Positions 42,968 through 64,000 of a stretch of DNA of 64,000 bases are shown here, one piece after another. A program made the position numbers and the translations under genes. Positions within the stretch are counted from its first letter, which is position 1. Each line of letters starts with the position of its first letter. The notes beneath the pieces were generated by a model. It made no database searches. It saw only the letters and a list, made by a program, of their open reading frames with translations, and had not been told where the DNA came from. Origin of the DNA: Shigella phage ESh27; the sequence record ON528737, one strand, 5' to 3'.

Positions 42968-43441
42968 ATGTTATTATCAGGCGCAAAATATAAAGAAGAA
43001 AAACAAAAATTTTATGATGCACAGAACGGTAAGTGTCCTATTTGCCGCCGTGAATTAGACTCTGATGTTCAAGGTAACCATCTTGACCACGACCATGAAT
43101 TAAACGGGCCAAAAGCCGGTAGAGTTCGTGGATTACTCTGTAATCTGTGCAACGCAGCAGAAGGTCAAATGAAGCATAAGTTCAACCGTTCCGGTTTGAA
43201 AGGTCAAAACGTTGATTACTTAGAATGGCTTGAAGCTCTTCTTGCTTATTTGAAACAAGATTATTCTGATAATAATATCCATCCTAATTTTGTTCCGGAT
43301 AAAACTAAAGAGTTCTCAAGACTAGGTAAAGAGGAAATGATGACCGAGATGCTTCAAAGAGGATTTGAATATAATGAATCTGATACTAAAACACAATTAA
43401 TAGCTTCATTCAAAAAGCAGCTTAGAAAGAGTTTAAAATGA
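42968..43441 (+). CDS. 49: endonuclease VII (Holliday junction resolvase)
   Basis: 157 aa; ...CPICRREL...HLDHDHELNGPKAGRVRGLLCNLCNAAEG... matches T4 gp49. Confidence 0.92.
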   Translation: MLLSGAKYKEEKQKFYDAQNGKCPICRRELDSDVQGNHLDHDHELNGPKAGRVRGLLCNLCNAAEGQMKHKFNRSGLKGQNVDYLEWLEALLAYLKQDYSDNNIHPNFVPDKTKEFSRLGKEEMMTEMLQRGFEYNESDTKTQLIASFKKQLRKSLK

Positions 43442-45255
43442 AAATTGAAAAAGAAATTGAAGGATTAATTTATAAAACTAATAAAGACCTTTTAAACGAG
43501 AATGCTAATAAAGATTCTCGTGTTTTTCCAACTCAACGGGACCTTATGGCTGGTATTGTGTCTAAGCACATTGCCAAAAATATGGTCCCGTCTTTTATTA
43601 TGAATGCGCATGAAAGTGGAATTATCCACATGCATGATATTGATTATTCTCCTGCTCTTCCATTTACTAATTGCTGTTTAGTCGATTTAAAGGGGATGCT
43701 TGAGAATGGTTTTAAATTAGGCAATGCTCAAATCGAAACGCCTAAATCAATTGGTGTTGCTACTGCAATTATGGCACAAATTACTGCACAAGTTGCTTCC
43801 CATCAATACGGCGGAACGACTTTTGCTAATGTAGATAAAGTACTTTCTCCTTATGTTAAACGCACCTATGCAAAACATATTGAGGACGCAGAAAAATGGC
43901 AAATCGCTGATGCGTTGAATTATGCTCAATCTAAAACAGAAAAAGACGTATACGATGCATTCCAAGCTTATGAATATGAAGTAAATACTCTCTTTAGTTC
44001 AAATGGACAAACGCCTTTTGTAACAATTACATTTGGTATGGGAACCGATTGGACTGAACGAATGATTCAGAAAGCAATTCTGAAAAATCGGATTAAAGGT
44101 CTTGGACGTGATGGGATAACTCCTATTTTCCCTAAACTTGTTATGTTCATTGAAGAAGGTGTTAATCTTTATAAAGATGATCCAAATTATGATATTAAAC
44201 AACTTGCGTTAGAATGTGCAAGCAAAAGAATGTATCCTGACATCATTTCGGTTAAGAATAATAAAGCTATTACTGGTTCTTCAGTTCCAGTTTCTCCAAT
44301 GGGTTGCCGTAGTTTCTTGAGTGTGTGGAAAGATTCGACCGGTAATGAAATTCTTGATGGACGTAATAATCTAGGTGTTGTAACGCTGAATCTTCCTCGC
44401 ATCGCGTTAGATTCTTATATTGGAACACAGTTCAATGAACAGAAATTTGTTGAGCTATTTAATGAACGAATGGATCTGTGCTTTGAAGCCTTGATGTGCA
44501 GAATTAGTTCTTTAAAGGGTGTTAAAGCAACTGTAGCTCCTATTCTTTACCAAGAAGGTGCATTCGGTGTTCGTCTTAAACCTGATGATGATATAATTGA
44601 GTTATTTAAAAACGGTAGAAGTTCAGTGTCTTTAGGATACATTGGTATTCATGAATTGAATATTCTTGTTAGTCGTGATATTGGACAAGAAATTTTAACT
44701 AAAATGAATGCTCATCTTAAACAGTGGACTGAAAGAACTGGATTTGCTTTTAGTTTATATTCGACTCCTGCTGAAAACCTTTGTTATCGCTTCTGTAAAC
44801 TTGATACAGAAAAATACGGAAGTGTAAAAGATGTTACCGATAAAGGCTGGTACACTAATAGTTTCCACGTTTCAGTAGAAGAAAATATTACTCCGTTTGA
44901 AAAGATTTCTCGTGAAGCGCCATATCATTTCATTGCGACAGGTGGTCACATTTCTTATGTTGAACTTCCTGATATGAAAAATAACCTAAAAGGTCTTGAG
45001 GCTGTCTGGGATTATGCTGCACAACATTTAGATTATTTTGGTGTTAATATGCCAGTGGATAAATGTTTTACATGCGGAAGTACTCATGAAATGACTCCTA
45101 CTGAAAACGGATTTGTTTGTTCAGTTTGCGGAGAAACTGATCCTAAAAAGATGAACACTATAAGAAGGACGTGCGGTTATTTGGGAAATCCGAACGAACG
45201 CGGATTTAATCTCGGTAAAAATAAAGAAATCATGCATAGGGTTAAACACCAATGA
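43438..45255 (+). CDS. nrdD: anaerobic ribonucleoside-triphosphate reductase
   Basis: 605 aa continuous ORF; C-terminal zinc ribbon and glycyl radical motif RRTCGY. Confidence 0.92.
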   Translation: MKIEKEIEGLIYKTNKDLLNENANKDSRVFPTQRDLMAGIVSKHIAKNMVPSFIMNAHESGIIHMHDIDYSPALPFTNCCLVDLKGMLENGFKLGNAQIETPKSIGVATAIMAQITAQVASHQYGGTTFANVDKVLSPYVKRTYAKHIEDAEKWQIADALNYAQSKTEKDVYDAFQAYEYEVNTLFSSNGQTPFVTITFGMGTDWTERMIQKAILKNRIKGLGRDGITPIFPKLVMFIEEGVNLYKDDPNYDIKQLALECASKRMYPDIISVKNNKAITGSSVPVSPMGCRSFLSVWKDSTGNEILDGRNNLGVVTLNLPRIALDSYIGTQFNEQKFVELFNERMDLCFEALMCRISSLKGVKATVAPILYQEGAFGVRLKPDDDIIELFKNGRSSVSLGYIGIHELNILVSRDIGQEILTKMNAHLKQWTERTGFAFSLYSTPAENLCYRFCKLDTEKYGSVKDVTDKGWYTNSFHVSVEENITPFEKISREAPYHFIATGGHISYVELPDMKNNLKGLEAVWDYAAQHLDYFGVNMPVDKCFTCGSTHEMTPTENGFVCSVCGETDPKKMNTIRRTCGYLGNPNERGFNLGKNKEIMHRVKHQ

Positions 45256-45722
45256 ATTATGATAGATTTTATCCTTGCGATTTTGTGAATGGCCCTGGTT
45301 GCAGGGTCGTTCTTTTCGTTACAGGTTGTTTGCATAAATGCGAAGGGTGTTATAATAAATCAACATGGAATGCTAGAAATGGTATTCCATTCACCGGTGA
45401 AACACTAGAACAATTAATTGAATGTTTGAATAATGATTATATAGAAGGATTAACTATAACCGGAGGTGACCCTCTCTATCCTGACAACCGAGATGTTATT
45501 CATTCTGTGGTTCAAACTATTAAAAATATTTATCCAAATAAAAGCATTTGGTTGTGGACAGGATATAAGTTTGAAGATATTAAACAACTAGAAATGCTTA
45601 AATATGTTGATGTTATTATTGATGGGAAGTATGAGAAAAATCTTCCGACCAAAAAGCTGTGGCGAGGATCAGATAATCAGCGACTTTGGTCAAATACCAA
45701 TGGGGTGTGGAAACATGATTAA
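45252..45722 (+). CDS. nrdG: anaerobic RNR activating enzyme (radical SAM)
   Basis: CDFVNGPGCRVVLFVTGCLHKCEGCYN cysteine cluster; 156 aa. Confidence 0.9.
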   Translation: MNYDRFYPCDFVNGPGCRVVLFVTGCLHKCEGCYNKSTWNARNGIPFTGETLEQLIECLNNDYIEGLTITGGDPLYPDNRDVIHSVVQTIKNIYPNKSIWLWTGYKFEDIKQLEMLKYVDVIIDGKYEKNLPTKKLWRGSDNQRLWSNTNGVWKHD

Positions 45723-48957: not shown

Positions 48958-48977
48958 AATTGAGCCAAGAGGTACTT

Positions 48978-49535
48978 ATGACTGAACAAAAACCTAAAAA
49001 TAACTATGTGAATAATAAAGAGCTTCTCGCTGCTATAATCGAGTGGAAAAAGGAGCTCTTAAATAATAAAGACCCAAACAAAATTATTCGTCAGAATGAT
49101 ACCATAGGTTTAGCAATTATGCTTATCGCCGAAGGCCTGTCCAAACGTTTCAACTTTTCAGGATATACCCAGTCTTGGAAGCAGGAGATGATTGCAGATG
49201 GGATTGAAGCCTCTATTAAGGGACTTCATAATTTCGACGAAACTAAGTACAATAACCCACATGCATACATAACTCGAGCTTGTTTTAATGCTTTTGTCCA
49301 ACGTATCAAAAAAGAACGTAAGGAAGTTGCAAAGAAATATAGTTACTTCGTTCATAATGTCTACGACAGTCATGACGATGATATGGTAGCGTTGGTAGAT
49401 GAAACGTTTATTCAAGACATCTACGATAAAATGACGCATTATGAAGAATCCGCTTATAAAGCTCCTGGGGCTGAAAAGAAGGAAGTTGTTAGCGATTCGC
49501 CTAGTTTGGATTTTTTATATGAGGATGACAATTGA
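48978..49535 (+). CDS. 55: late-transcription sigma factor gp55
   Basis: 185 aa from [17 protein letters not shown]...; ...[24 protein letters not shown]... matches T4 gp55. Confidence 0.92.
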
Positions 49536-50566: not shown

Positions 50567-50710
50567 ATGATTATATTTTTAGGTGTGACTATATTGATAT
50601 TAGCCTTCTATCTATTCACTAGGGCGTGTTGGATAGGTTTCTTTAGTACCCCAGATGGATTAATTTCTGTGGTTTTATTTTGCATTGCGATAACGGCGTT
50701 AGACTTATGA
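50567..50710 (+). CDS. small hydrophobic ORF (47 aa)
   Basis: GAGGAAAA then ATG; stop overlaps gene 47 start. Confidence 0.35.
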   Translation: MIIFLGVTILILAFYLFTRACWIGFFSTPDGLISVVLFCIAITALDL

Positions 50711-51726
50711 AAATTTTACATTTAGGTGACTTCCATATCGGCGTTAAACAGGACGACCCATGGGTTCAAGATATTCAACGTGATGGTATTCGTCAAGCAA
50801 TTGAATACTCTAAGAAACACGGGATTAAAACTTGGATTCAGTACGGTGATTGGTTTGACGTCCGTAAAGCAATTACACATCGTACAATGGAATTCAATCG
50901 TGAAATCGTTGATATGATTTCTAAAGCAGGCATTCACGTTCATGTCACGATAGGAAACCATGACATGGCGTTTAAGAATACAATAACACCTAACACTGTT
51001 TCTGAATTGTTAACACAATTTGAAAACTTTACTATTTACGAACATCCAACTACTGTAGATTTTGACGGATGTCTGATTGATATCGTTCCGTGGATGTGTG
51101 AAGAAAATACAGGTGAAATCTTAGAGCATATCAAGACTTCTTCTGCTGCGTATTGTGTTGGACACTGGGAACTGAACGGCTTCTATTTCTATAAAGGAAT
51201 GAAGTCTCATGGGCTTGAACCTGATTTCTTAAAGACCTATAAACAAGTCTGGTCCGGCCACTTCCACACAATCTCTGAAGCTGCTAACGTCAAATATATT
51301 GGGACACCATGGACCCTTACTGCAGGTGACGAGAATGATCCTCGCGGATTCTGGGTATTTGACACTGATGTTGAACGTATGGAATTTATTCCTAATGAAA
51401 CAACATGGCATCGACGAATCACTTATCCGTTTAAAGGCAAAATTAATTATTCTGATTATACTAATCTAGCCGTACGTGTTATAGTATCAGAAATTGATTC
51501 AGAGTTGACTAAGTTTGAATCTGAACTTGAAAAAGTAGTTCACTCTCTTCGTATGGTTTCTAAAGTTGATAACAGTGTTGAATCTGATGACGACCAGGAA
51601 ATCGAGATTAAATCACTTCAAGATATCATTAAAGAATATATTGACGCGATTCCAGATATCTCAGACGAAGACAGAGAAGCGCTGGTCAAATATTCCAACG
51701 AACTTTATATTGAGGCAACACAATGA
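50707..51726 (+). CDS. 47: recombination endonuclease subunit gp47 (Mre11-like)
   Basis: MKILHLGDFHIG... and GNHD phosphoesterase motifs. Confidence 0.9.
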   Translation: MKILHLGDFHIGVKQDDPWVQDIQRDGIRQAIEYSKKHGIKTWIQYGDWFDVRKAITHRTMEFNREIVDMISKAGIHVHVTIGNHDMAFKNTITPNTVSELLTQFENFTIYEHPTTVDFDGCLIDIVPWMCEENTGEILEHIKTSSAAYCVGHWELNGFYFYKGMKSHGLEPDFLKTYKQVWSGHFHTISEAANVKYIGTPWTLTAGDENDPRGFWVFDTDVERMEFIPNETTWHRRITYPFKGKINYSDYTNLAVRVIVSEIDSELTKFESELEKVVHSLRMVSKVDNSVESDDDQEIEIKSLQDIIKEYIDAIPDISDEDREALVKYSNELYIEATQ

Positions 51727-57345: not shown

Positions 57346-60057
57346 ATGAAAGAATTTTACTTAACGGTTGAACAGATCGGTGATTCAATTTTTGAACGTT
57401 ACATCGATTCTAATGGCCGTGAACGTACTCGTGAAGTAGAATATAAACCATCATTGTTTGCTCATTGTCCAGAAAGTCAGGCTACGAAATATTTCGATAT
57501 CTACGGTAAGCCGTGTACTCGTAAGTTGTTCGCTAATATGCGTGATGCCTCCCAATGGATTAAACGCATGGAAGATATCGGTCTTGAAGCACTTGGCATG
57601 GACGATTTCAAATTGGCGTATTTGTCTGACACTTATAATTATGAAATCAAATACGACCATACAAAAATTCGTGTGGCTAACTTCGACATCGAAGTAACAT
57701 CTCCGGATGGGTTCCCTGAGCCGTCACAAGCAAAACGTCCTATTGATGCTATCACTCATTATGACTCAATTGATGACAGGTTTTATGTATTTGACCTTTT
57801 GAATTCTCCATATGGTAATGTGGAAGAATGGTCTATCGAAATTGCAGCTAAGCTTCAAGAACAAGGTGGTGATGAAGTTCCATCCGAAATTATTGATAAA
57901 ATCATTTATATGCCGTTCGATAACGAAAAAGAATTGTTGATGGAATATCTCAACTTCTGGCAACAGAAAACTCCTGTCATTTTAACCGGATGGAACGTTG
58001 AGTCATTTGATATTCCATATGTGTATAACCGAATCAAGAATATTTTTGGCGAATCTACTGCGAAACGTTTATCACCACATCGTAAAACTCGTGTTAAAGT
58101 TATCGAAAACATGTATGGTTCTCGTGAAATCATTACATTGTTTGGTATCTCTGTTCTTGATTACATTGACCTTTACAAAAAATTCTCTTTTACCAATCAA
58201 CCGTCGTATTCTCTGGATTACATTTCAGAATTTGAATTGAACGTTGGTAAACTGAAATATGACGGCCCTATTTCTAAGCTTCGTGAAAGCAATCACCAAC
58301 GATATATTTCTTATAACATCATCGACGTGTATCGTGTATTGCAAATTGATGCTAAACGCCAGTTCATCAACTTGAGTTTGGACATGGGTTATTATGCTAA
58401 GATACAGATTCAATCTGTGTTCAGCCCAATTAAAACTTGGGACGCTATTATTTTTAATAGCCTTAAAGAGCAGAACAAGGTGATTCCACAAGGTCGTTCG
58501 CATCCAGTTCAACCTTACCCAGGCGCTTTTGTTAAGGAACCTATTCCAAATCGATACAAATATGTAATGAGTTTCGACCTTACATCTCTGTATCCAAGCA
58601 TCATTCGCCAAGTGAATATTAGCCCGGAAACAATAGCAGGAACGTTTAAAGTAGCTCCATTGCATGATTATATTAACGCAATCGCTGAACGTCCTTCAGA
58701 TGTGTACAGTTGCTCTCCTAATGGCATGATGTATTATAAAGACCGTGACGGTGTAGTTCCAACTGAAATCACTAAGGTCTTTAATCAACGTAAAGAACAT
58801 AAAGGTTACATGCTTGCAGCTCAACGTAATGGTGAAATAATTAAAGAGGCATTGCATAATCCTAATCTTTCTGTTGATGAACCATTAGATGTTGATTATC
58901 GTTTCGACTTCACTGACGAGATTAAAGAAAAGATTAAAAAGTTGTCTGCTAAATCTCTTAATGAAATGCTGTTTAGAGCTCAACGTACTGAAGTTGCAGG
59001 TATGACTGCACAAATTAACCGTAAATTGCTCATCAACTCGCTTTATGGTGCACTTGGCAACGTTTGGTTCCGTTATTATGATTTGCGTAATGCTACTGCA
59101 ATCACAACATTCGGGCAAATGGCTTTACAGTGGATTGAACGTAAAGTTAATGAATATCTGAATGAAGTTTGTGGTACAGAAGGTGAAGCTTTCGTTCTTT
59201 ATGGTGATACAGACTCTATTTACGTATCTGCTGATAAAATTATCGATAAGGTTGGTGAATCTAAATTCCGTGATACCAACCATTGGGTAGACTTCTTAGA
59301 TAAGTTCGCTCGTGAACGTATGGAACCTGCTATTGATAGAGGTTTCCGTGAAATGTGTGAATACATGAACAATAAACAACACTTAATGTTCATGGACCGA
59401 GAAGCTATCGCTGGTCCTCCGCTCGGTTCTAAAGGTATTGGCGGATTTTGGACTGGTAAGAAACGTTATGCATTAAACGTGTGGGATATGGAAGGTACTC
59501 GTTACGCTGAGCCTAAACTCAAAATCATGGGTCTCGAAACACAGAAATCTTCGACCCCAAAAGCAGTACAGAAAGCTCTTAAAGAATGTATTCGACGTAT
59601 GCTTCAGGAAGGTGAAGAATCATTACAAGAATATTTTAAAGAGTTTGAAAAAGAATTCCGTCAATTGAATTATATTAGCATCGCGTCGGTATCTTCTGCG
59701 AATAACATTGCTAAATATGACGTAGGTGGATTCCCGGGTCCCAAATGCCCGTTCCATATTCGTGGAATTCTGACGTATAACCGGGCTATCAAAGGTAATA
59801 TCGATGCACCACAAGTTGTAGAAGGTGAAAAAGTATATGTTCTGCCTTTACGTGAAGGAAACCCGTTCGGTGATAAATGTATCGCATGGCCTTCTGGTAC
59901 TGAAATCACAGATTTAATTAAAGACGACGTACTTCATTGGATGGACTACACGGTTCTCCTTGAGAAGACATTTATTAAACCACTTGAAGGATTCACATCA
60001 GCAGCGAAACTCGATTACGAGAAGAAAGCATCTCTATTCGATATGTTCGATTTTTGA
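57346..60057 (+). CDS. 43: DNA polymerase gp43 (family B, RB69-type)
   Basis: 903 aa; exo FDIEV, DLTSLYPSII, YGDTDS; N-terminus MKEFYLTVEQIGDSIFERYIDSNGRE as remembered for RB69 gp43. Confidence 0.97.
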   Translation: MKEFYLTVEQIGDSIFERYIDSNGRERTREVEYKPSLFAHCPESQATKYFDIYGKPCTRKLFANMRDASQWIKRMEDIGLEALGMDDFKLAYLSDTYNYEIKYDHTKIRVANFDIEVTSPDGFPEPSQAKRPIDAITHYDSIDDRFYVFDLLNSPYGNVEEWSIEIAAKLQEQGGDEVPSEIIDKIIYMPFDNEKELLMEYLNFWQQKTPVILTGWNVESFDIPYVYNRIKNIFGESTAKRLSPHRKTRVKVIENMYGSREIITLFGISVLDYIDLYKKFSFTNQPSYSLDYISEFELNVGKLKYDGPISKLRESNHQRYISYNIIDVYRVLQIDAKRQFINLSLDMGYYAKIQIQSVFSPIKTWDAIIFNSLKEQNKVIPQGRSHPVQPYPGAFVKEPIPNRYKYVMSFDLTSLYPSIIRQVNISPETIAGTFKVAPLHDYINAIAERPSDVYSCSPNGMMYYKDRDGVVPTEITKVFNQRKEHKGYMLAAQRNGEIIKEALHNPNLSVDEPLDVDYRFDFTDEIKEKIKKLSAKSLNEMLFRAQRTEVAGMTAQINRKLLINSLYGALGNVWFRYYDLRNATAITTFGQMALQWIERKVNEYLNEVCGTEGEAFVLYGDTDSIYVSADKIIDKVGESKFRDTNHWVDFLDKFARERMEPAIDRGFREMCEYMNNKQHLMFMDREAIAGPPLGSKGIGGFWTGKKRYALNVWDMEGTRYAEPKLKIMGLETQKSSTPKAVQKALKECIRRMLQEGEESLQEYFKEFEKEFRQLNYISIASVSSANNIAKYDVGGFPGPKCPFHIRGILTYNRAIKGNIDAPQVVEGEKVYVLPLREGNPFGDKCIAWPSGTEITDLIKDDVLHWMDYTVLLEKTFIKPLEGFTSAAKLDYEKKASLFDMFDF

Positions 60058-60097
60058 TATAATGCCATGGACGGTAAACTAATTAAATGAGAGAAAT

Positions 60098-60733
60098 ATG
60101 AAAACTACTCCTATTACTATCGCTATTGACGCAATCATAAAACAAGCTTCTTCTTTGGCCGCTATGGCCAAAGTAATTAGTCAAAACCCTGCTCGTTATA
60201 ATGTTATTCTAGAAACACTTCGACGCCCTGGACTGAGTAATTATGAAAGTCGTGTAATTATTACAGGTGTTGGTAAGAACGCTAATATCGCAACTAAAGC
60301 TTCTGAGACATTTGCTTCACTCGGTATCCCAAGTATGTACTTGAACACCGGGCATTATTCTCACGGTGATGCAGGATTTATTGCGCCTAATGATGTGTTG
60401 ATTCATATTAGTCGTTCTGGTAAGACTGAAGAAATGATAGGTGTTGCTAAACATCTTCGTATGATTCGTCCTCAGGTTAAACAGATTCTGTTACATTGTA
60501 ACCCTGACATTCCACAAGAATACGAAGCTCTTTTTGATTATACGTTCTGTACCGGTATCGCGGTAGAAGTTGACGAGAACTCTTTAGCTCCGACTATGTC
60601 CACTACATTGTTGTTAGCGCTTATCGATACGTTTGCTATCAACCTTTCGTCTGAACGTGGATTTACCTCTAATGACTTCCTTAAGTTCCACCCTGGCGGT
60701 GCACTAGGTGCCATGTTACGAGGCGAACAATGA
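60098..60733 (+). CDS. SIS-domain sugar phosphate isomerase, KdsD/GutQ-type (putative D-arabinose-5-phosphate isomerase)
   Basis: VIITGVGKNANIATKASETFASLGIPS...HGDAGFIAPNDVLIHISRSGKTEE...LAPTMSTTLLLALIDTFA...HPGGALG pattern of API SIS domains. Confidence 0.8.
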   Translation: MKTTPITIAIDAIIKQASSLAAMAKVISQNPARYNVILETLRRPGLSNYESRVIITGVGKNANIATKASETFASLGIPSMYLNTGHYSHGDAGFIAPNDVLIHISRSGKTEEMIGVAKHLRMIRPQVKQILLHCNPDIPQEYEALFDYTFCTGIAVEVDENSLAPTMSTTLLLALIDTFAINLSSERGFTSNDFLKFHPGGALGAMLRGEQ

Positions 60734-60873
60734 AAGCAATAACAATAGGACTTTTACTATTGATGCTTGTCATGACTATCTACTGGAGCTTAACGGCTCC
60801 GGTAATGATTCCAACACTTGTAATTGGATGGATTATGATTGGTCTACAGGCAAAGTATGAATGCTTTAACTAG
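60730..60873 (+). CDS. small hydrophobic ORF (47 aa)
   Basis: ATGA overlap with isomerase stop; two hydrophobic stretches. Confidence 0.35.
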   Translation: MKAITIGLLLLMLVMTIYWSLTAPVMIPTLVIGWIMIGLQAKYECFN

Positions 60874-60914
60874 AATAGTGTACAATACACCTACTTACCA
60901 ATGAGGACTTCAAC

Positions 60915-62600
60915 ATGAAAAAAGCTGTTATTCTTGGTGCTGGATTGGCAACTCGTTTATATCCAATTACTCACCATATTCCAAAAGTTCTTGTGAACTA
61001 TAAACAAGACACTATTCTGAGCAATTTGTATACAATTTATTCTGACCTTGGCGCAGATGAAATTATTGTAGTAGTTCATTCAAAATTTGCTGAAACCGTT
61101 CGAGCTTATTGTGAGCAAGAAGGGTTCAATGTGACTATTCGTACAGTTGATGAAGCGTATGGTTCTGCTTATGCTCTTGCTAAATTACACAAAGATTTAG
61201 ACGGCCATAACGTAGTTGTTAACTGGTGCGATATTATTCCTGATTTTGGTTCATGGTCTTGGAATGTTAACGCAATCTATGTTAAGGGTGATGAATGTCG
61301 ATATAATTTCGATGGTGAAAATATCACTAACGTAGGTTCAACAGGCGGTAATGTTGTAGGAATTTATCAGTTCAAAGACTGGGAATTCTATATGGGTTCT
61401 ACTGATGAGGAAATTCATGAATACTGCAAAGGACGTGATTTCGTAGAATTCCTTTACAGCAGCGCATTCAATAAATCAGAGCTTATGAATCTAATTGATT
61501 TAGGTGATATGCCTAAACTTGAAAAAGCTCATGAAGTTCGTGAACTTAATCGTAGTTTTAATGCAGTTGAAATTGGTGAAGAAACTGTAACTAAATTCGC
61601 ATTAACTGAACAAGGTCGAGCTCTTCAAAAAGATGAGATTTCATGGTATTTGAAAGTGAAATCAGATTCAGTCCCTCAGTTAGTTTCTGTTAATGAAAAT
61701 AACTTTGAAATGGAACGCATTAAAGGTAAGCCAGCATTTGAATATATTAAATCCAAATCAAGTCTTGCTCGTCCACAAATTGTTGATGCAATTTTAGATG
61801 CACTGAAATTCAGCACAGACATTTATTTTGTAAGTCCTGAAACTGTTCGTCGTGATTTCACTAAAGAATTCTATACGAAAGTTATTGATCGTTGTGAAAG
61901 CATTCAACCATTGATTGATTCATTTGGTAAAATCACACATGTGAACTACACTAAGATTGGACGTCTGAAGCCAATGCTGAAACAAGCTTTAGAACATCTT
62001 ATTCGTTATCATAACCGTTCTCAGGGACAGTACTCTGTTATTCATGGTGACCCAAACTTCAGTAATACTATGATTACCGATAACGGCGAAGTCAAGTTTA
62101 TCGACCCTCGTGGATATTTTGGTGAAACCAAGATTTACGGGCCAAAATTGTATGATGAAGCTAAAGTGCTTTATGCTGTTTCAGGTTATGATGAATTCAA
62201 CGCTAATCCGACCTGGGGCCAGTTTATTATTGATGAAACAACTTGTAATGTGACTATTAACATCAATCCATTAGTTTACAAATATGGAAAGATGAGTTCG
62301 TTTAACGAGTATCATCATTTGGCAGTGGCAATTATCTGGATTGCATTAGGTGGTTATTTCAAGAATAATCCACTTAAAGCGGTAGCCGCATATTATAAAG
62401 GTATGGAACTTCTAACTAAGCAATTACGTAACATGGGCCGTGTACTTCAAGATGGCTCTATTAGTTATGACGTAGCAGAACCTGTAACGGCTACTCTGAT
62501 TACAAAAAATCCTGGTAAATGGGTACTAACTGATAAAGAAACTGGTGTTTCCTATCGTCCAATCGGTGGCGATATCACTCATCAATGGGAACGAATCTAA
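60915..62600 (+). CDS. bifunctional sugar-1-phosphate nucleotidyltransferase / sugar kinase (APH-fold)
   Basis: N-terminal ILGAGLATRLYPIT (RmlA-like G-x-G-T-R-L); C-terminal HGDPNFSN...FIDPRG kinase motifs; 561 aa. Confidence 0.75.
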   Translation: MKKAVILGAGLATRLYPITHHIPKVLVNYKQDTILSNLYTIYSDLGADEIIVVVHSKFAETVRAYCEQEGFNVTIRTVDEAYGSAYALAKLHKDLDGHNVVVNWCDIIPDFGSWSWNVNAIYVKGDECRYNFDGENITNVGSTGGNVVGIYQFKDWEFYMGSTDEEIHEYCKGRDFVEFLYSSAFNKSELMNLIDLGDMPKLEKAHEVRELNRSFNAVEIGEETVTKFALTEQGRALQKDEISWYLKVKSDSVPQLVSVNENNFEMERIKGKPAFEYIKSKSSLARPQIVDAILDALKFSTDIYFVSPETVRRDFTKEFYTKVIDRCESIQPLIDSFGKITHVNYTKIGRLKPMLKQALEHLIRYHNRSQGQYSVIHGDPNFSNTMITDNGEVKFIDPRGYFGETKIYGPKLYDEAKVLYAVSGYDEFNANPTWGQFIIDETTCNVTININPLVYKYGKMSSFNEYHHLAVAIIWIALGGYFKNNPLKAVAAYYKGMELLTKQLRNMGRVLQDGSISYDVAEPVTATLITKNPGKWVLTDKETGVSYRPIGGDITHQWERI

Positions 62601-62986
62601 TGCACCGTGTAGAAAACATGCTTAATCTTTGTTTTGATGTCGATGATTGTATAACAGAGTGGAATAACAATCGTGATTATGTGAACTTCAAACCGGACGT
62701 CGAAATGGTGTCCGCCATTAATGCCCTGTATGATGCAGGGCACACCATAACGCTTTACACGGCTCGTGGTATGAAGTCTGTAGGACCTGGTCGTATAGCA
62801 ATTGACATTCTCCCGAGTCTGATTCAGAACTTGGAAAACATTGGTTTGAAGTACCATAATTTGCTAACACATAAACCAGTATATGATTGGATTATCGACG
62901 ACAAAGCTATGCGTCCTGACGAATTCAAAGCTCTTATGAATAAAGGCGAATTCGAAACATTTAAATCATATAAACCGAATCTATAA
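62600..62986 (+). CDS. HAD-superfamily phosphatase-like protein
   Basis: N-terminal LCFDVDDCIT resembles HAD motif I; start set at ATG overlapping upstream stop. Confidence 0.55.
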   Translation: MHRVENMLNLCFDVDDCITEWNNNRDYVNFKPDVEMVSAINALYDAGHTITLYTARGMKSVGPGRIAIDILPSLIQNLENIGLKYHNLLTHKPVYDWIIDDKAMRPDEFKALMNKGEFETFKSYKPNL

Positions 62987-63043
62987 TAATTTAAGTAAGA
63001 CCTGCAAAAACCATCGCATCAATTAACGTGAGATGCAAAAAAA

Positions 63044-64000
63044 ATGAATACTTTTAAAATCGGAACGAATTTTGATTTAGCTCTTCTTGATAAAATCGTA
63101 GAGCTCAATAAAACCTATCCTAATAGCTTGATAAACGAAGTATATGGCTCTACAAGAGAAATGGCTTTTGTAGCAGCCAGACCTGATTTTAGGCTTCCTG
63201 ACGTCGACAAAAAGATGTTAGAAGACTATGTTAAACGTTGTAACGAATTAGGTATTTGCTTTAACTATACACTCAACACGATAAATCCTGGTTCAAAAAG
63301 AGAACTAGTTGAGTGGAAGAAGAAAGCTATTCAGGATTATGTTCAGTATCTTTGGTCAATAGGCGTATGGCGTATTACTATCGCTAACCCTGTTGTTATG
63401 GAAATTGTTCGTGAAGTCAATAAAGATATTGAGATTGAAGTTTCAACAATTCTACATGTTGATGCCGTAACTCAAATCAAATACTTACACGACCAATATA
63501 ACATCAAAAAGGTCTGCTGTGGAATTCATAAGAACCGTTCAGTTTCTTTCCTGAAGCGTGCAGCAGAGTTTTGCAATAAGAACAATATAATATTTGAAGT
63601 TCTTGTAAATGAGTTCTGTTCTAATGCTGGTAAAGGGTATACAACACATTGTAGCTATCGTGACTCTTGCTATATTTTCCATAGTACTGATGTTACAGCT
63701 GATGATGCTAAATCCTTAAATGGATATCCAATGCAACACTGCATTAAAGCTCGTGATACAGACCCATTTAACTGGCTGAGAACTCGTTTTGTTCGTCCTC
63801 AAGATTTGAAACTTTATAATGATATTGGTATCACTCAATTCAAAGTTTCAGGACGTACAGGTAGCACAGACTACATTTTGAAAGTTCTTGAAGCATACGC
63901 TTCTGAAAAGTTTGAAGGTAATTTGTTAGAACTGTGGAAGCCTTTAGAGACTATTTTCACTCTTGAAAATGAGACTGAGTTTTCACATACAGTAAATATT
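63044..64000 (+). CDS. U32-family-like protein (partial, runs off window end)
   Basis: No stop before 64000; ...YTLNT..., ...IANPVVMEIVRE..., Cys-rich EFCSNAGKGYTTHCSYRDSC recall the U32 family; assignment tentative. Confidence 0.45.
   Translation, partial: MNTFKIGTNFDLALLDKIVELNKTYPNSLINEVYGSTREMAFVAARPDFRLPDVDKKMLEDYVKRCNELGICFNYTLNTINPGSKRELVEWKKKAIQDYVQYLWSIGVWRITIANPVVMEIVREVNKDIEIEVSTILHVDAVTQIKYLHDQYNIKKVCCGIHKNRSVSFLKRAAEFCNKNNIIFEVLVNEFCSNAGKGYTTHCSYRDSCYIFHSTDVTADDAKSLNGYPMQHCIKARDTDPFNWLRTRFVRPQDLKLYNDIGITQFKVSGRTGSTDYILKVLEAYASEKFEGNLLELWKPLETIFTLENETEFSHTVNI

Follow-up and report, generated by a model that had tools for sequence, protein, structure and literature searches.

A U32-family protein encoded beside the UDP-arabinose genes of an RB69-like Shigella phage is a candidate oxygen-independent DNA-base hydroxylase

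We analysed 64,000 nucleotides of the genome of Shigella phage ESh27 (sequence record ON528737; this whole stretch is hereafter the window), concentrating on the genes that follow its DNA polymerase and above all on the last of them, which encodes a divergent member of the U32 protein family. From 54.6 kb to the window end the plus strand keeps the T4 gene order of 45, 44, 62, regA and DNA polymerase, the last being an RB69-type enzyme of 903 aa (57346-60057, from the list of open reading frames, ORFs). Downstream of it lie five ORFs, all on the plus strand. These encode a putative arabinose-5-phosphate isomerase of 211 aa that consists of a SIS domain only (60098-60733; Pfam, NCBIfam and PHROG), a hydrophobic 47-aa peptide (60730-60873; ORF list and PHROG 3610), an AfhE-like nucleotidyltransferase/kinase fusion of 561 aa (60915-62600; Pfam, NCBIfam and motifs), an AfhF-like HAD phosphatase of 133 aa (62585-62986; motifs and an NCBIfam match below cutoff) and the U32 protein (63044-64000; Pfam), which runs off the end with 319 of its approximately 386 codons inside the window. 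An earlier note on this DNA had described four consecutive genes here. Their positions agree with the ORF list, while the 47-aa ORF at 60730-60873 had been missed. The part that deserves specialist attention is the U32 gene, which that note had left as a vague 'U32-like protein'.

More than 150 Mosigvirus phage genomes match these 4 kb at 97-98% nucleotide identity, phiE142 best at 97.9%; the gene pattern is thus no product of chance, and the window derives from an RB69-like coliphage. The base composition of the five-gene stretch matches that of its flanks. Scanning 59800-64000 for promoters and terminators gave counts not above those of shuffled sequence, and operon boundaries therefore cannot be claimed.

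The 211-aa protein matches Pfam SIS (4.2e-10), the NCBIfam KpsF/GutQ and KdsD models (5e-32 and 2e-30) and PHROG 5670, labelled 'arabinose 5-phosphate isomerase' (4e-116), and is 98.6% identical to its counterpart in phage HY126 and 99.1% to that in phage Bas47. The alignment to the KdsD profile covers positions 48-202 of 328 only and scores 106 bits against an equivalog cutoff of 505; the protein probably functions as an arabinose-5-phosphate isomerase, yet it is no KdsD equivalog. We assign it as the counterpart of RB69 gp55, predicted to convert ribulose-5-phosphate to arabinose-5-phosphate. The start of the 47-aa ORF overlaps the isomerase stop by 4 nt. This ORF belongs to the RB69 orf054c family (PHROG 3610, 6.8e-27), with Virsaitis27 ORF42 (Winklervirus) and JS98 orf44 (Dhakavirus) as homologues; its product is very hydrophobic, with Kyte-Doolittle means of 1.4-2.2 across most of its length, and carries a conserved C-terminal K(Y/F)xCFN motif.

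In the 561-aa protein, residues 3-99 match Pfam NTP_transferase (7.9e-10), and there are many matches to NCBIfam sugar-1-phosphate nucleotidyltransferases and one to PDB entry 1jyk (2e-5). Kinase matches in the C-terminal half are sub-threshold (Fructosamin_kin and EcKL, residues 310-409), so that the kinase call rests on motifs, on near-identity to HY126 and on published fold matches. The motifs are GAGLATR at residue 8, HGDPNFSN at 377 (the catalytic loop) and IDPRG at 396, and the protein is 96.4% identical to HY126 AfhE. Accordingly named AfhE-like (RB69 ORF53_52c), it is predicted to combine an N-terminal sugar-1-phosphate uridylyltransferase with a C-terminal kinase of the aminoglycoside phosphotransferase (APH) fold. 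The 133-aa protein has no Pfam match; it matches NCBIfam TIGR01689, the EcbF/BcbF subfamily of capsule-biosynthesis HAD phosphatases, below cutoff (1.9e-13) and HAD-IIIA at 0.026, and carries DVDD at residue 18 and IIDD at 105. With 99.2% identity to HY126 AfhF, whose annotated start corresponds to an alternative start at 62600, it is a predicted AfhF-like HAD phosphatase, equivalent to RB69 gp51. Its PHROG match (1238, 3e-43) is mislabelled 'phosphoheptose isomerase'. Such misannotations are widespread: the phosphatase appears under that name, the fusion as 'GlmU' or 'capsule biosynthesis protein' and the U32 protein as 'peptidase', and these names have spread through RefSeq phage records.

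The window ends inside the U32 gene, and for this reason the 5-hydroxy-dCMP synthase (a ThyA homologue), the transferase Aat1 and a Tmk-like kinase fall outside it. All three lie right downstream in Bas47, HY126 and phiE142, which are 97-99% identical to this DNA; in Bas47 the U32 gene is directly followed by a 79-aa ORF, the ThyA homologue, Aat1, the Tmk-like gene and uvsX. Family hidden Markov models (HMMs) run across the whole window found neither an Aat1-type transferase nor a ThyA-type hydroxylase. The alpha- and beta-glucosyltransferase genes of T4-type glucosyl-hydroxymethylcytosine are not in the interval between gp55 (48960-49535) and gp47 (50680-51726), which holds four small ORFs only, and the slot after the polymerase is filled by the arabinose genes. 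Here the earlier note had it right: it had reported the empty alpha-gt slot and no glycosyltransferase or dCMP hydroxymethylase gene in the window, and had placed the transferase gene outside it. Aat1 is treated as the base-proximal arabinosyltransferase family (PMC13326640), but the literature conflicts, since its homologue TH1_063 of Shewanella phage Thanatos-1 (L008:3407-4309) is reported to be a UDP-xylose pyrophosphorylase in vitro (PMC12838424). At four Marfavirus- or Bragavirus-like loci (L028, L029, L032, L038) AfhE, AfhF, U32, ThyA homologue and Aat1 genes are present, while a search of the ±10 kb around revealed no gene for a SIS isomerase; in these phages the host KdsD/GutQ may supply arabinose-5-phosphate.

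The chemistry served by these genes has been in print since 2018, although the earlier note had offered the idea as possibly new. Thomas et al. found arabinose on RB69 DNA, showed ORF053c/052c to be a single 561-aa gene and named it, with ORF055c, as candidates for UDP-arabinose synthesis (PMC6024577), and the Bas47 GenBank record labels the same genes as UDP-arabinose biosynthesis. Using nuclear magnetic resonance (NMR) and mass spectrometry (MS), Lee et al. 2026 established that DNA of RB69 and of Acinetobacter phage DLP3 carries mono- to tri-arabinosylated 5-hydroxycytosine joined through an ether link; they also showed that the gene-42 homologue is a flavin-binding, O2-dependent 5-hydroxy-dCMP synthase that incorporates 18O from O2 (PMC13326640). 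For HY126, the work of He 2026, as far as PMC13326640 relays it, ascribes to AfhE the activities of an arabinose-5-phosphate 1-kinase and a UDP-arabinose pyrophosphorylase: its kinase domain produces arabinose-1,5-bisphosphate from arabinose-5-phosphate, the Mg-dependent AfhF takes off the 5-phosphate to leave arabinose-1-phosphate, and the N-terminal domain of AfhE turns this into UDP-arabinofuranose.

These data allow us to propose the equivalent route for the window. Ribulose-5-phosphate from the host pentose-phosphate pathway would be isomerised to arabinose-5-phosphate by the SIS protein, phosphorylated at C1 by the kinase domain of the fusion to give arabinose-1,5-bisphosphate, and stripped of its 5-phosphate by the HAD phosphatase; the nucleotidyltransferase domain of the fusion would then form UDP-arabinofuranose, and transferases encoded outside the window would put the sugar on 5-hydroxycytosine. 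We hold it very probable that 60098-62986 is a UDP-D-arabinofuranose supply module for arabinosyl-5-hydroxycytosine DNA hypermodification in Mosigvirus, with the reservation that the activities come from the HY126 proteins, not from those encoded here, and reach us second-hand through what PMC13326640 reports of them. The module as such is already known from Thomas 2018, the Bas47 annotation, Mahler 2025, He 2026 and Lee 2026; the pathway was described in print from 2018 to 2026, and a further Mosigvirus copy of it is nothing new in itself. In its broad outline the earlier note is borne out. Pfam and NCBIfam matches, motifs and 96-100% identity to HY126 uphold the families it had named for the isomerase, nucleotidyltransferase/kinase, HAD and U32 proteins. 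It was also right that the genes of this RB69-like phage activate a pentose (D-arabinose) as a nucleotide sugar and that the module replaces the glucosylation logic of T4.

That note had further read all four genes, U32 included, as one linear pathway leading from arabinose-5-phosphate through free arabinose and arabinose-1-phosphate to a nucleoside diphosphate (NDP)-arabinose that feeds arabinosyl-hydroxymethylcytosine (ara-hmC). The domain content fits this on paper, ara-hmC was the name given to the base in the 2018 report (PMC6024577), and Table 1 of PMC13326640 retains the entry 'dephosphorylates Araf5p to Ara'. However, the text of the same paper, in the portion citing He 2026, puts the HY126 kinase first, making the 1,5-bisphosphate on which the phosphatase then acts, and NMR, MS and 18O2 labelling identify the base as arabinosylated 5-hydroxycytosine with an ether link rather than as ara-hmC (PMC13326640). 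Nor does the U32 protein fit as a fourth sugar-activation step. Complete clusters that lack it occur in the chemically characterised DLP3, in Dhakavirus JS98 and in Pseudomonas phage PspYZU05, all of which keep AfhE, AfhF, the ThyA homologue, Aat1 and the Tmk-like gene, and U32 is therefore not part of sugar activation. We consider the linear route through free arabinose very improbable. A role of the module in host envelope chemistry, such as 3-deoxy-D-manno-octulosonate (KDO), capsule or lipopolysaccharide arabinose, instead of DNA is suggested by the capsule/KDO-type families to which the isomerase and the EcbF/BcbF-type phosphatase belong and by records annotated 'capsule biosynthesis protein'. 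Given the strict synteny with the 5-hydroxy-dCMP synthase and the DNA arabinosyltransferases, and the demonstration of arabinose on virion DNA of RB69, Bas46/47, NP and HY126, we attach next to no weight to it.

The U32 protein itself matches Pfam Peptidase_U32 (PF01136) at 4.5e-11, with 42.9 bits against a cutoff of 22.4, and its sole NCBIfam match is UbiU (9e-4). The protein is RB69 gp50, and the 319 residues in the window are 100% identical to those of HY126 and Bas47. Its conserved start is at 63044. In the leader (63000-63043) the poly-A tracts vary, being A5+A8 in the window, A8+A6 in Bas47, A6+A7 in a phiE142-like contig and A5+TAAAAA in HY126, and these length differences place the annotated 'MQKM' start of Bas47 out of frame in the window. 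Polymerase slippage or sequencing error could account for the variation, or it could be a site that tunes U32 translation.

Pfam, PHROG and GenBank names would make this protein a collagenase-like peptidase. That name has only historical reasons, the family is not defined by any catalytic residues, and the context of the gene is nucleotide metabolism, not morphogenesis or lysis; peptidase activity is thus most improbable. The characterised members, in contrast, are Fe-S hydroxylation factors, namely RlhA, which acts in the formation of 5-hydroxycytidine (ho5C) in rRNA, TrhP, which acts in that of 5-hydroxyuridine (ho5U) in tRNA, and UbiU/V, all of them in O2-independent, prephenate-dependent hydroxylation (PMC5727448, PMC10990095, PMC6747719). 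Formation of ho5C2501 in 23S rRNA needs RlhA, which in turn depends on prephenate, on Fe-S biogenesis and on its residues E161, C169 and C176 (PMC5727448). UbiU/V are [4Fe-4S] proteins of the family, and a four-Cys motif is common to most U32 subfamilies (PMC6747719); prephenate is the oxygen donor in the anaerobic hydroxylations of UbiU/V, for which the chorismate-mutase domain of PheA suffices as supply (PMC10990095).

Across 36-61 homologues of the phage protein we found ten invariant cysteines, C161, C195, C206, C212, C236, C343, C348, C352, C355 and, nearly so, C180. Their spacing is C195-X10-C206-X5-C212-X23-C236, followed by a C-terminal CX4CX3CX2C cluster. Among the Escherichia coli U32 proteins, hhalign places RlhA closest (2e-5), then TrhP (1.6e-3) and UbiU (9e-3), and it sets E161, C169 and C176-YISH of RlhA on the invariant phage residues E193, C206 and C212-YIFH; in the MAFFT alignment the register is another, and a Gly falls opposite RlhA C176. 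A sequence search of the PDB returned no match at E ≤ 1. The AlphaFold2 (AF2) model has a pLDDT of 93.3, and the best fold match of this model in the PDB is the U32 protein 5D88. In Foldseek against the PDB, 5D88 was accompanied by generic TIM barrels, a result that does not resolve the subfamily.

To place the gene in context we examined cultured phages. U32 is present in 221 GenBank phage records, in every case at 80% identity or more. In each genus examined, except Mosigvirus and apart from Klebsiella phage Marfa, the one Marfavirus locus without it, a true chorismate mutase (CM) of the AroQ type is encoded after U32; it matches Pfam CM_2 above cutoff (1.7e-11) and shows the invariant R/D/R/K/E/K/S/Q pattern. 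The order in these T4-like phages is U32, sometimes an ORF of 54-74 aa, CM and then the ThyA homologue, and CM stands next to U32 in 54 GenBank records. In Shewanella phage Thanatos the U32-CM pair has been relocated within the cluster and is still adjacent, with a 4-nt overlap; the pair moves as a unit.

Just past the window end in the Bas47 sequence (L001:10203-10442) comes an ORF of 79 aa, which shares 4 nt with the end of the U32 gene. We tried this Mosigvirus ORF as a degenerate chorismate mutase and rejected it, there being no Pfam or NCBIfam match and a blastp E of 0.054. It matches instead the small ORF that separates U32 from CM in phages of Yersinia and Serratia (E approximately 4e-12) and belongs with it to a family also present in other phages (PHROG 8601), with the motif EYYxDAFxHS; the 79-aa protein has no Cys, and from this homology we conclude that Mosigvirus simply lost CM. 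The 79-aa product could be a partner of U32. In the Erwinia phage Virsaitis27 the first 15 or so residues (MRRINHTMNELVIKS) of the 114-aa CM (L002:7158-7502) look like the beginning of the small protein encoded beside U32 in other phages, which suggests that a deletion in Winklervirus fused the small ORF with the CM gene. A Seg-like GIY-YIG homing endonuclease gene sits between the phosphatase and U32 genes in Winklervirus (L002:5352-5990) and in Kanagawavirus and Tegunavirus (L015:1686-2324 and L017:1424-2062); the junction of sugar genes and base-modifying genes is an insertion point for mobile elements.

Genus by genus, the ThyA homologue and AfhE co-occur in GenBank phage records. By host, 137 of 177 Escherichia records have U32, as do 26/26 Klebsiella, 7/7 Proteus and 6/6 Yersinia records, but none of the 57 for Acinetobacter does. 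Phages that infect facultative anaerobes carry it, whereas the 57 Acinetobacter phages and one Pseudomonas phage, which have the rest of the cluster, do not. A strict rule of host aerobiosis was rejected, since Dhakaviruses of E. coli lack U32, and we keep it as a tendency.

Turning to uncultured phages, a database search returned 282 U32 homologues, including a tight subfamily of approximately 360 aa at 45-58% identity, whose genes lie on viral contigs as long as 466 kb that encode replicases of the Pol III alpha type. We scanned 47 IMG/VR loci carrying U32, 15 of them T4-like and 32 from other viruses, with an HMM per family. Within ±10 kb a ThyA homologue was present at 15/15 T4-like loci and at 0/32 of the others, and a separate motif-based scan for ThyA-type synthases likewise returned all 15 T4-like U32 contigs and none of the 32. 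Aat1-family genes were found at every T4-like locus and at 23 of the 32 others, AfhE-like genes at 15/15 and 16/32, and SIS genes at 11/15 and 9/32. A shikimate or prephenate gene lies beside U32 at 13/15 T4-like loci (CM in each case) and at 12/32 others; the latter comprise six stand-alone CM_2 proteins, five fusions of 3-deoxy-D-arabino-heptulosonate-7-phosphate (DAHP) synthase with CM and one DAHP synthase. Pfam matches to the stand-alone CM, to the fusions and to the equivalent DAHP synthase, in an 80-kb contig (L013), are above gathering cutoffs.

In the non-T4 phages the gene that overlaps the U32 start is an Aat1 homologue (hhalign 99.85%, E 6e-31, 263 columns), and in about three-quarters of 44 ThyA-type loci Aat1 directly follows the ThyA homologue. 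Aat1 is therefore paired with either a ThyA-type hydroxylase or U32, the pattern expected of two analogous enzymes. The DAHP synthase-CM fusions (Pfam DAHP_synth_1 + CM_2) stand beside U32, Aat1-like, SIS and AfhE-like genes on five IMG/VR contigs of 41-199 kb (L052, L053, L054, L055, L061); there seems to be no earlier report of large phages with auxiliary genes of the shikimate pathway. On a 60.9-kb contig from SRR33454321 (L023:7777-16179), U32 lies between Aat1-like and TAGT-like (Tet-associated glycosyltransferase) genes, with a Gly_transf_sug protein, a dUTPase/DCD and a UDP-galactopyranose mutase as neighbours and no ThyA-type gene in view, a gene set that recalls the galactofuranosyl-5-hydroxycytosine chemistry of Rhizobium phage RL38J1.

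These contexts allow two further functions to be weighed. U32 could belong to the arabinose branch as a reductase or epimerase that modifies a sugar or heterocycle, which is how Table 1 of PMC13326640 labels it and what 'epimerase' in PMC13390438 implies. It has a TIM barrel for which Foldseek lists sugar isomerases, epimerases and aldolases at E of approximately 1e-5, its gene sits between the phosphatase and the base-modifying genes, and SIS and AfhE-like genes are near it in many non-T4 loci. Yet no redox or epimerisation step is needed after arabinose-5-phosphate to reach D-arabinofuranose, DLP3 and JS98 make the modification without U32, and loci of the form Tmk-Aat1-U32-PolIII have no sugar-activation genes at all. 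A sugar enzyme would also leave the recurrent CM or DAHP synthase partner and the ten invariant Cys unexplained, and we regard this assignment as unlikely. A translation-tuning auxiliary gene whose product, with CM, hydroxylates RNA, for instance ho5U34 in phage or host tRNA or ho5C in rRNA, would have precedent in that RNAs are the only nucleic-acid substrates known for U32 proteins and RlhA is the closest characterised relative. The phage protein, however, lacks the long C-terminal region of RlhA, and its gene overlaps that of Aat1 and lies, in T4-like phages and in phages unrelated to them, within modules for DNA modification and replication, where dCMP deaminase, Tmk-like, dUTPase/DCD and polymerase genes flank it; an RNA substrate seems distinctly improbable.

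We propose instead that the U32 protein encoded from 63044 is an Fe-S enzyme that would use prephenate to hydroxylate C5 of a pyrimidine, in a deoxynucleotide or in DNA, without O2, yielding 5-hydroxy-deoxycytidylate or a 5-hydroxypyrimidine in DNA. It would be a functional analogue of the flavin- and O2-dependent ThyA-type 5-hydroxy-dCMP synthase encoded two genes downstream. In enteric T4-like phages the two would act as anaerobic and aerobic twins, paralleling NrdDG/NrdAB, TrhP/TrhO and UbiUV/UbiIHF. On its plus strand (43438-45722) the window itself has genes for NrdD (605 aa), the ribonucleotide reductase that works anaerobically, and for NrdG (156 aa), the activase of NrdD, so this phage already has an O2-independent version of one step of nucleotide metabolism. 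In many uncultured large phages U32 would be the sole hydroxylase feeding Aat1-family DNA glycosyltransferases, and the CM genes or DAHP synthase-CM fusions would be auxiliary genes that supply the oxygen donor. Mosigvirus would draw prephenate from host PheA/TyrA, because the genus lost the phage chorismate mutase.

Several points weigh against this proposal. The ThyA homologue alone is enough for 5-hydroxycytosine in aerobic E. coli (PMC13326640), coliphage Dhakaviruses manage without U32, and Mosigvirus, the genus of the window, has no CM. The ThyA-type absence at the 32 loci covers ±10 kb and a motif-based scan, and the role of Aat1 as first transferase is itself a proposal. Similarity to RlhA, TrhP and UbiU is remote, and the phage CX10CX5CX23C spacing departs from the canonical [4Fe-4S] motif CX6CX15CX3/4C, although UbiU and UbiV likewise deviate from the canonical four-Cys motif (PMC6747719). 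In vitro hydroxylation has never been shown for any U32 protein (PMC10990095). On balance, from sequence and gene context, we put the hydroxylase function at even chances.

We found no proposer of U32 as an oxygen-independent DNA-base hydroxylase in the literature searched, and no link there of U32, prephenate or chorismate mutase to phage 5-hydroxycytosine; He 2026 and Mahler 2025 may discuss them. In Lee et al. RB69 gp50 has a single table entry, which is not discussed, as 'sugar or heterocycle reductase', and their Discussion cites the RlhA/TrhP RNA-hydroxylation pathways without noting that gp50 belongs to the same protein family (PMC13326640). If the proposal is true, U32 explains how phages of the gut, where O2 is lacking, can make a DNA modification that requires it, and U32 hydroxylases gain a first DNA-precursor substrate, a soluble nucleotide that could enable the long-sought in vitro assay of prephenate-donor chemistry. 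Chorismate mutase and DAHP synthase would then be phage auxiliary genes serving DNA modification, and many uncultured phages with U32 and Aat1 but no ThyA-type enzyme would be flagged as likely carriers of glycosylated-hydroxypyrimidine DNA, which bears on restriction evasion, phage therapy and sequencing artefacts.

Set against known systems, the window is closest to the Afh/RB69 gp51-gp55 pathway (HY126 AfhE/AfhF; RB69 gp55, gp52:53 and gp51; DLP3 gp81-83), with the same genes in the same order after DNA polymerase. Its proteins are 96-99% identical to those of HY126, 99-100% to those of Bas47 and 57-60% to those of DLP3. The published descriptions of that pathway discuss no role for U32 (gp50) or for the 47-aa and 79-aa ORFs. 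The T4 glucosyl-hydroxymethylcytosine system (gene 42, alpha-gt, beta-gt and host UDP-glucose) occupies the same slots, after gene 43 and before uvsX, and follows the same scheme, in which hydroxylated dCMP comes from an enzyme of the ThyA family, is passed on to the polymerase through a kinase, and the sugar is attached by transferases. Unlike T4, the base is 5-hydroxy- rather than 5-hydroxymethyl-cytosine and the alpha-gt slot is empty; moreover, the arabinose donor, unlike UDP-glucose, is not a host metabolite, and the phage therefore encodes its synthesis.

At the level of single enzymes, KdsD, GutQ and KpsF share a homologous SIS catalytic domain with the phage isomerase (NCBIfam 5e-32 to 2e-22). 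The phage protein lacks their C-terminal CBS pair, falls far under the equivalog cutoffs and resembles single-domain isomerases such as PDB 3ETN (cited in PMC13326640). The fusion has its parallel in AmgK-MurU of MurNAc recycling, where an APH-fold sugar kinase is likewise coupled to a minimal sugar-1-phosphate uridylyltransferase, and we take its kinase half to resemble AmgK. MurU is the top structural match published for the AfhE N-terminal domain (PMC13326640) and an NCBIfam match here. Whereas AmgK and MurU are a pair of proteins, the phage version is one polypeptide whose kinase acts on a sugar 5-phosphate, and this is why an extra phosphatase step is needed.

The U32 protein, finally, shares with RlhA, TrhP, UbiU and UbiV the PF01136 domain, a TIM-barrel model and many invariant cysteines; in the hhalign register an invariant Glu and two Cys also line up with E161, C169 and C176 of RlhA. 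Its genomic link to prephenate supply mirrors the genetic need of the E. coli U32 factors for the PheA/TyrA chorismate mutase, and E. coli also pairs its U32 hydroxylation factors with O2-dependent alternatives, TrhO and UbiI/H/F. The phage proteins differ from these in forming a separate subfamily of approximately 360-390 aa with 45-88% internal identity, a variant Cys spacing and a C-terminal CX4CX3CX2C cluster of their own, and the proposed deoxynucleotide or DNA substrate would be a first for the family.

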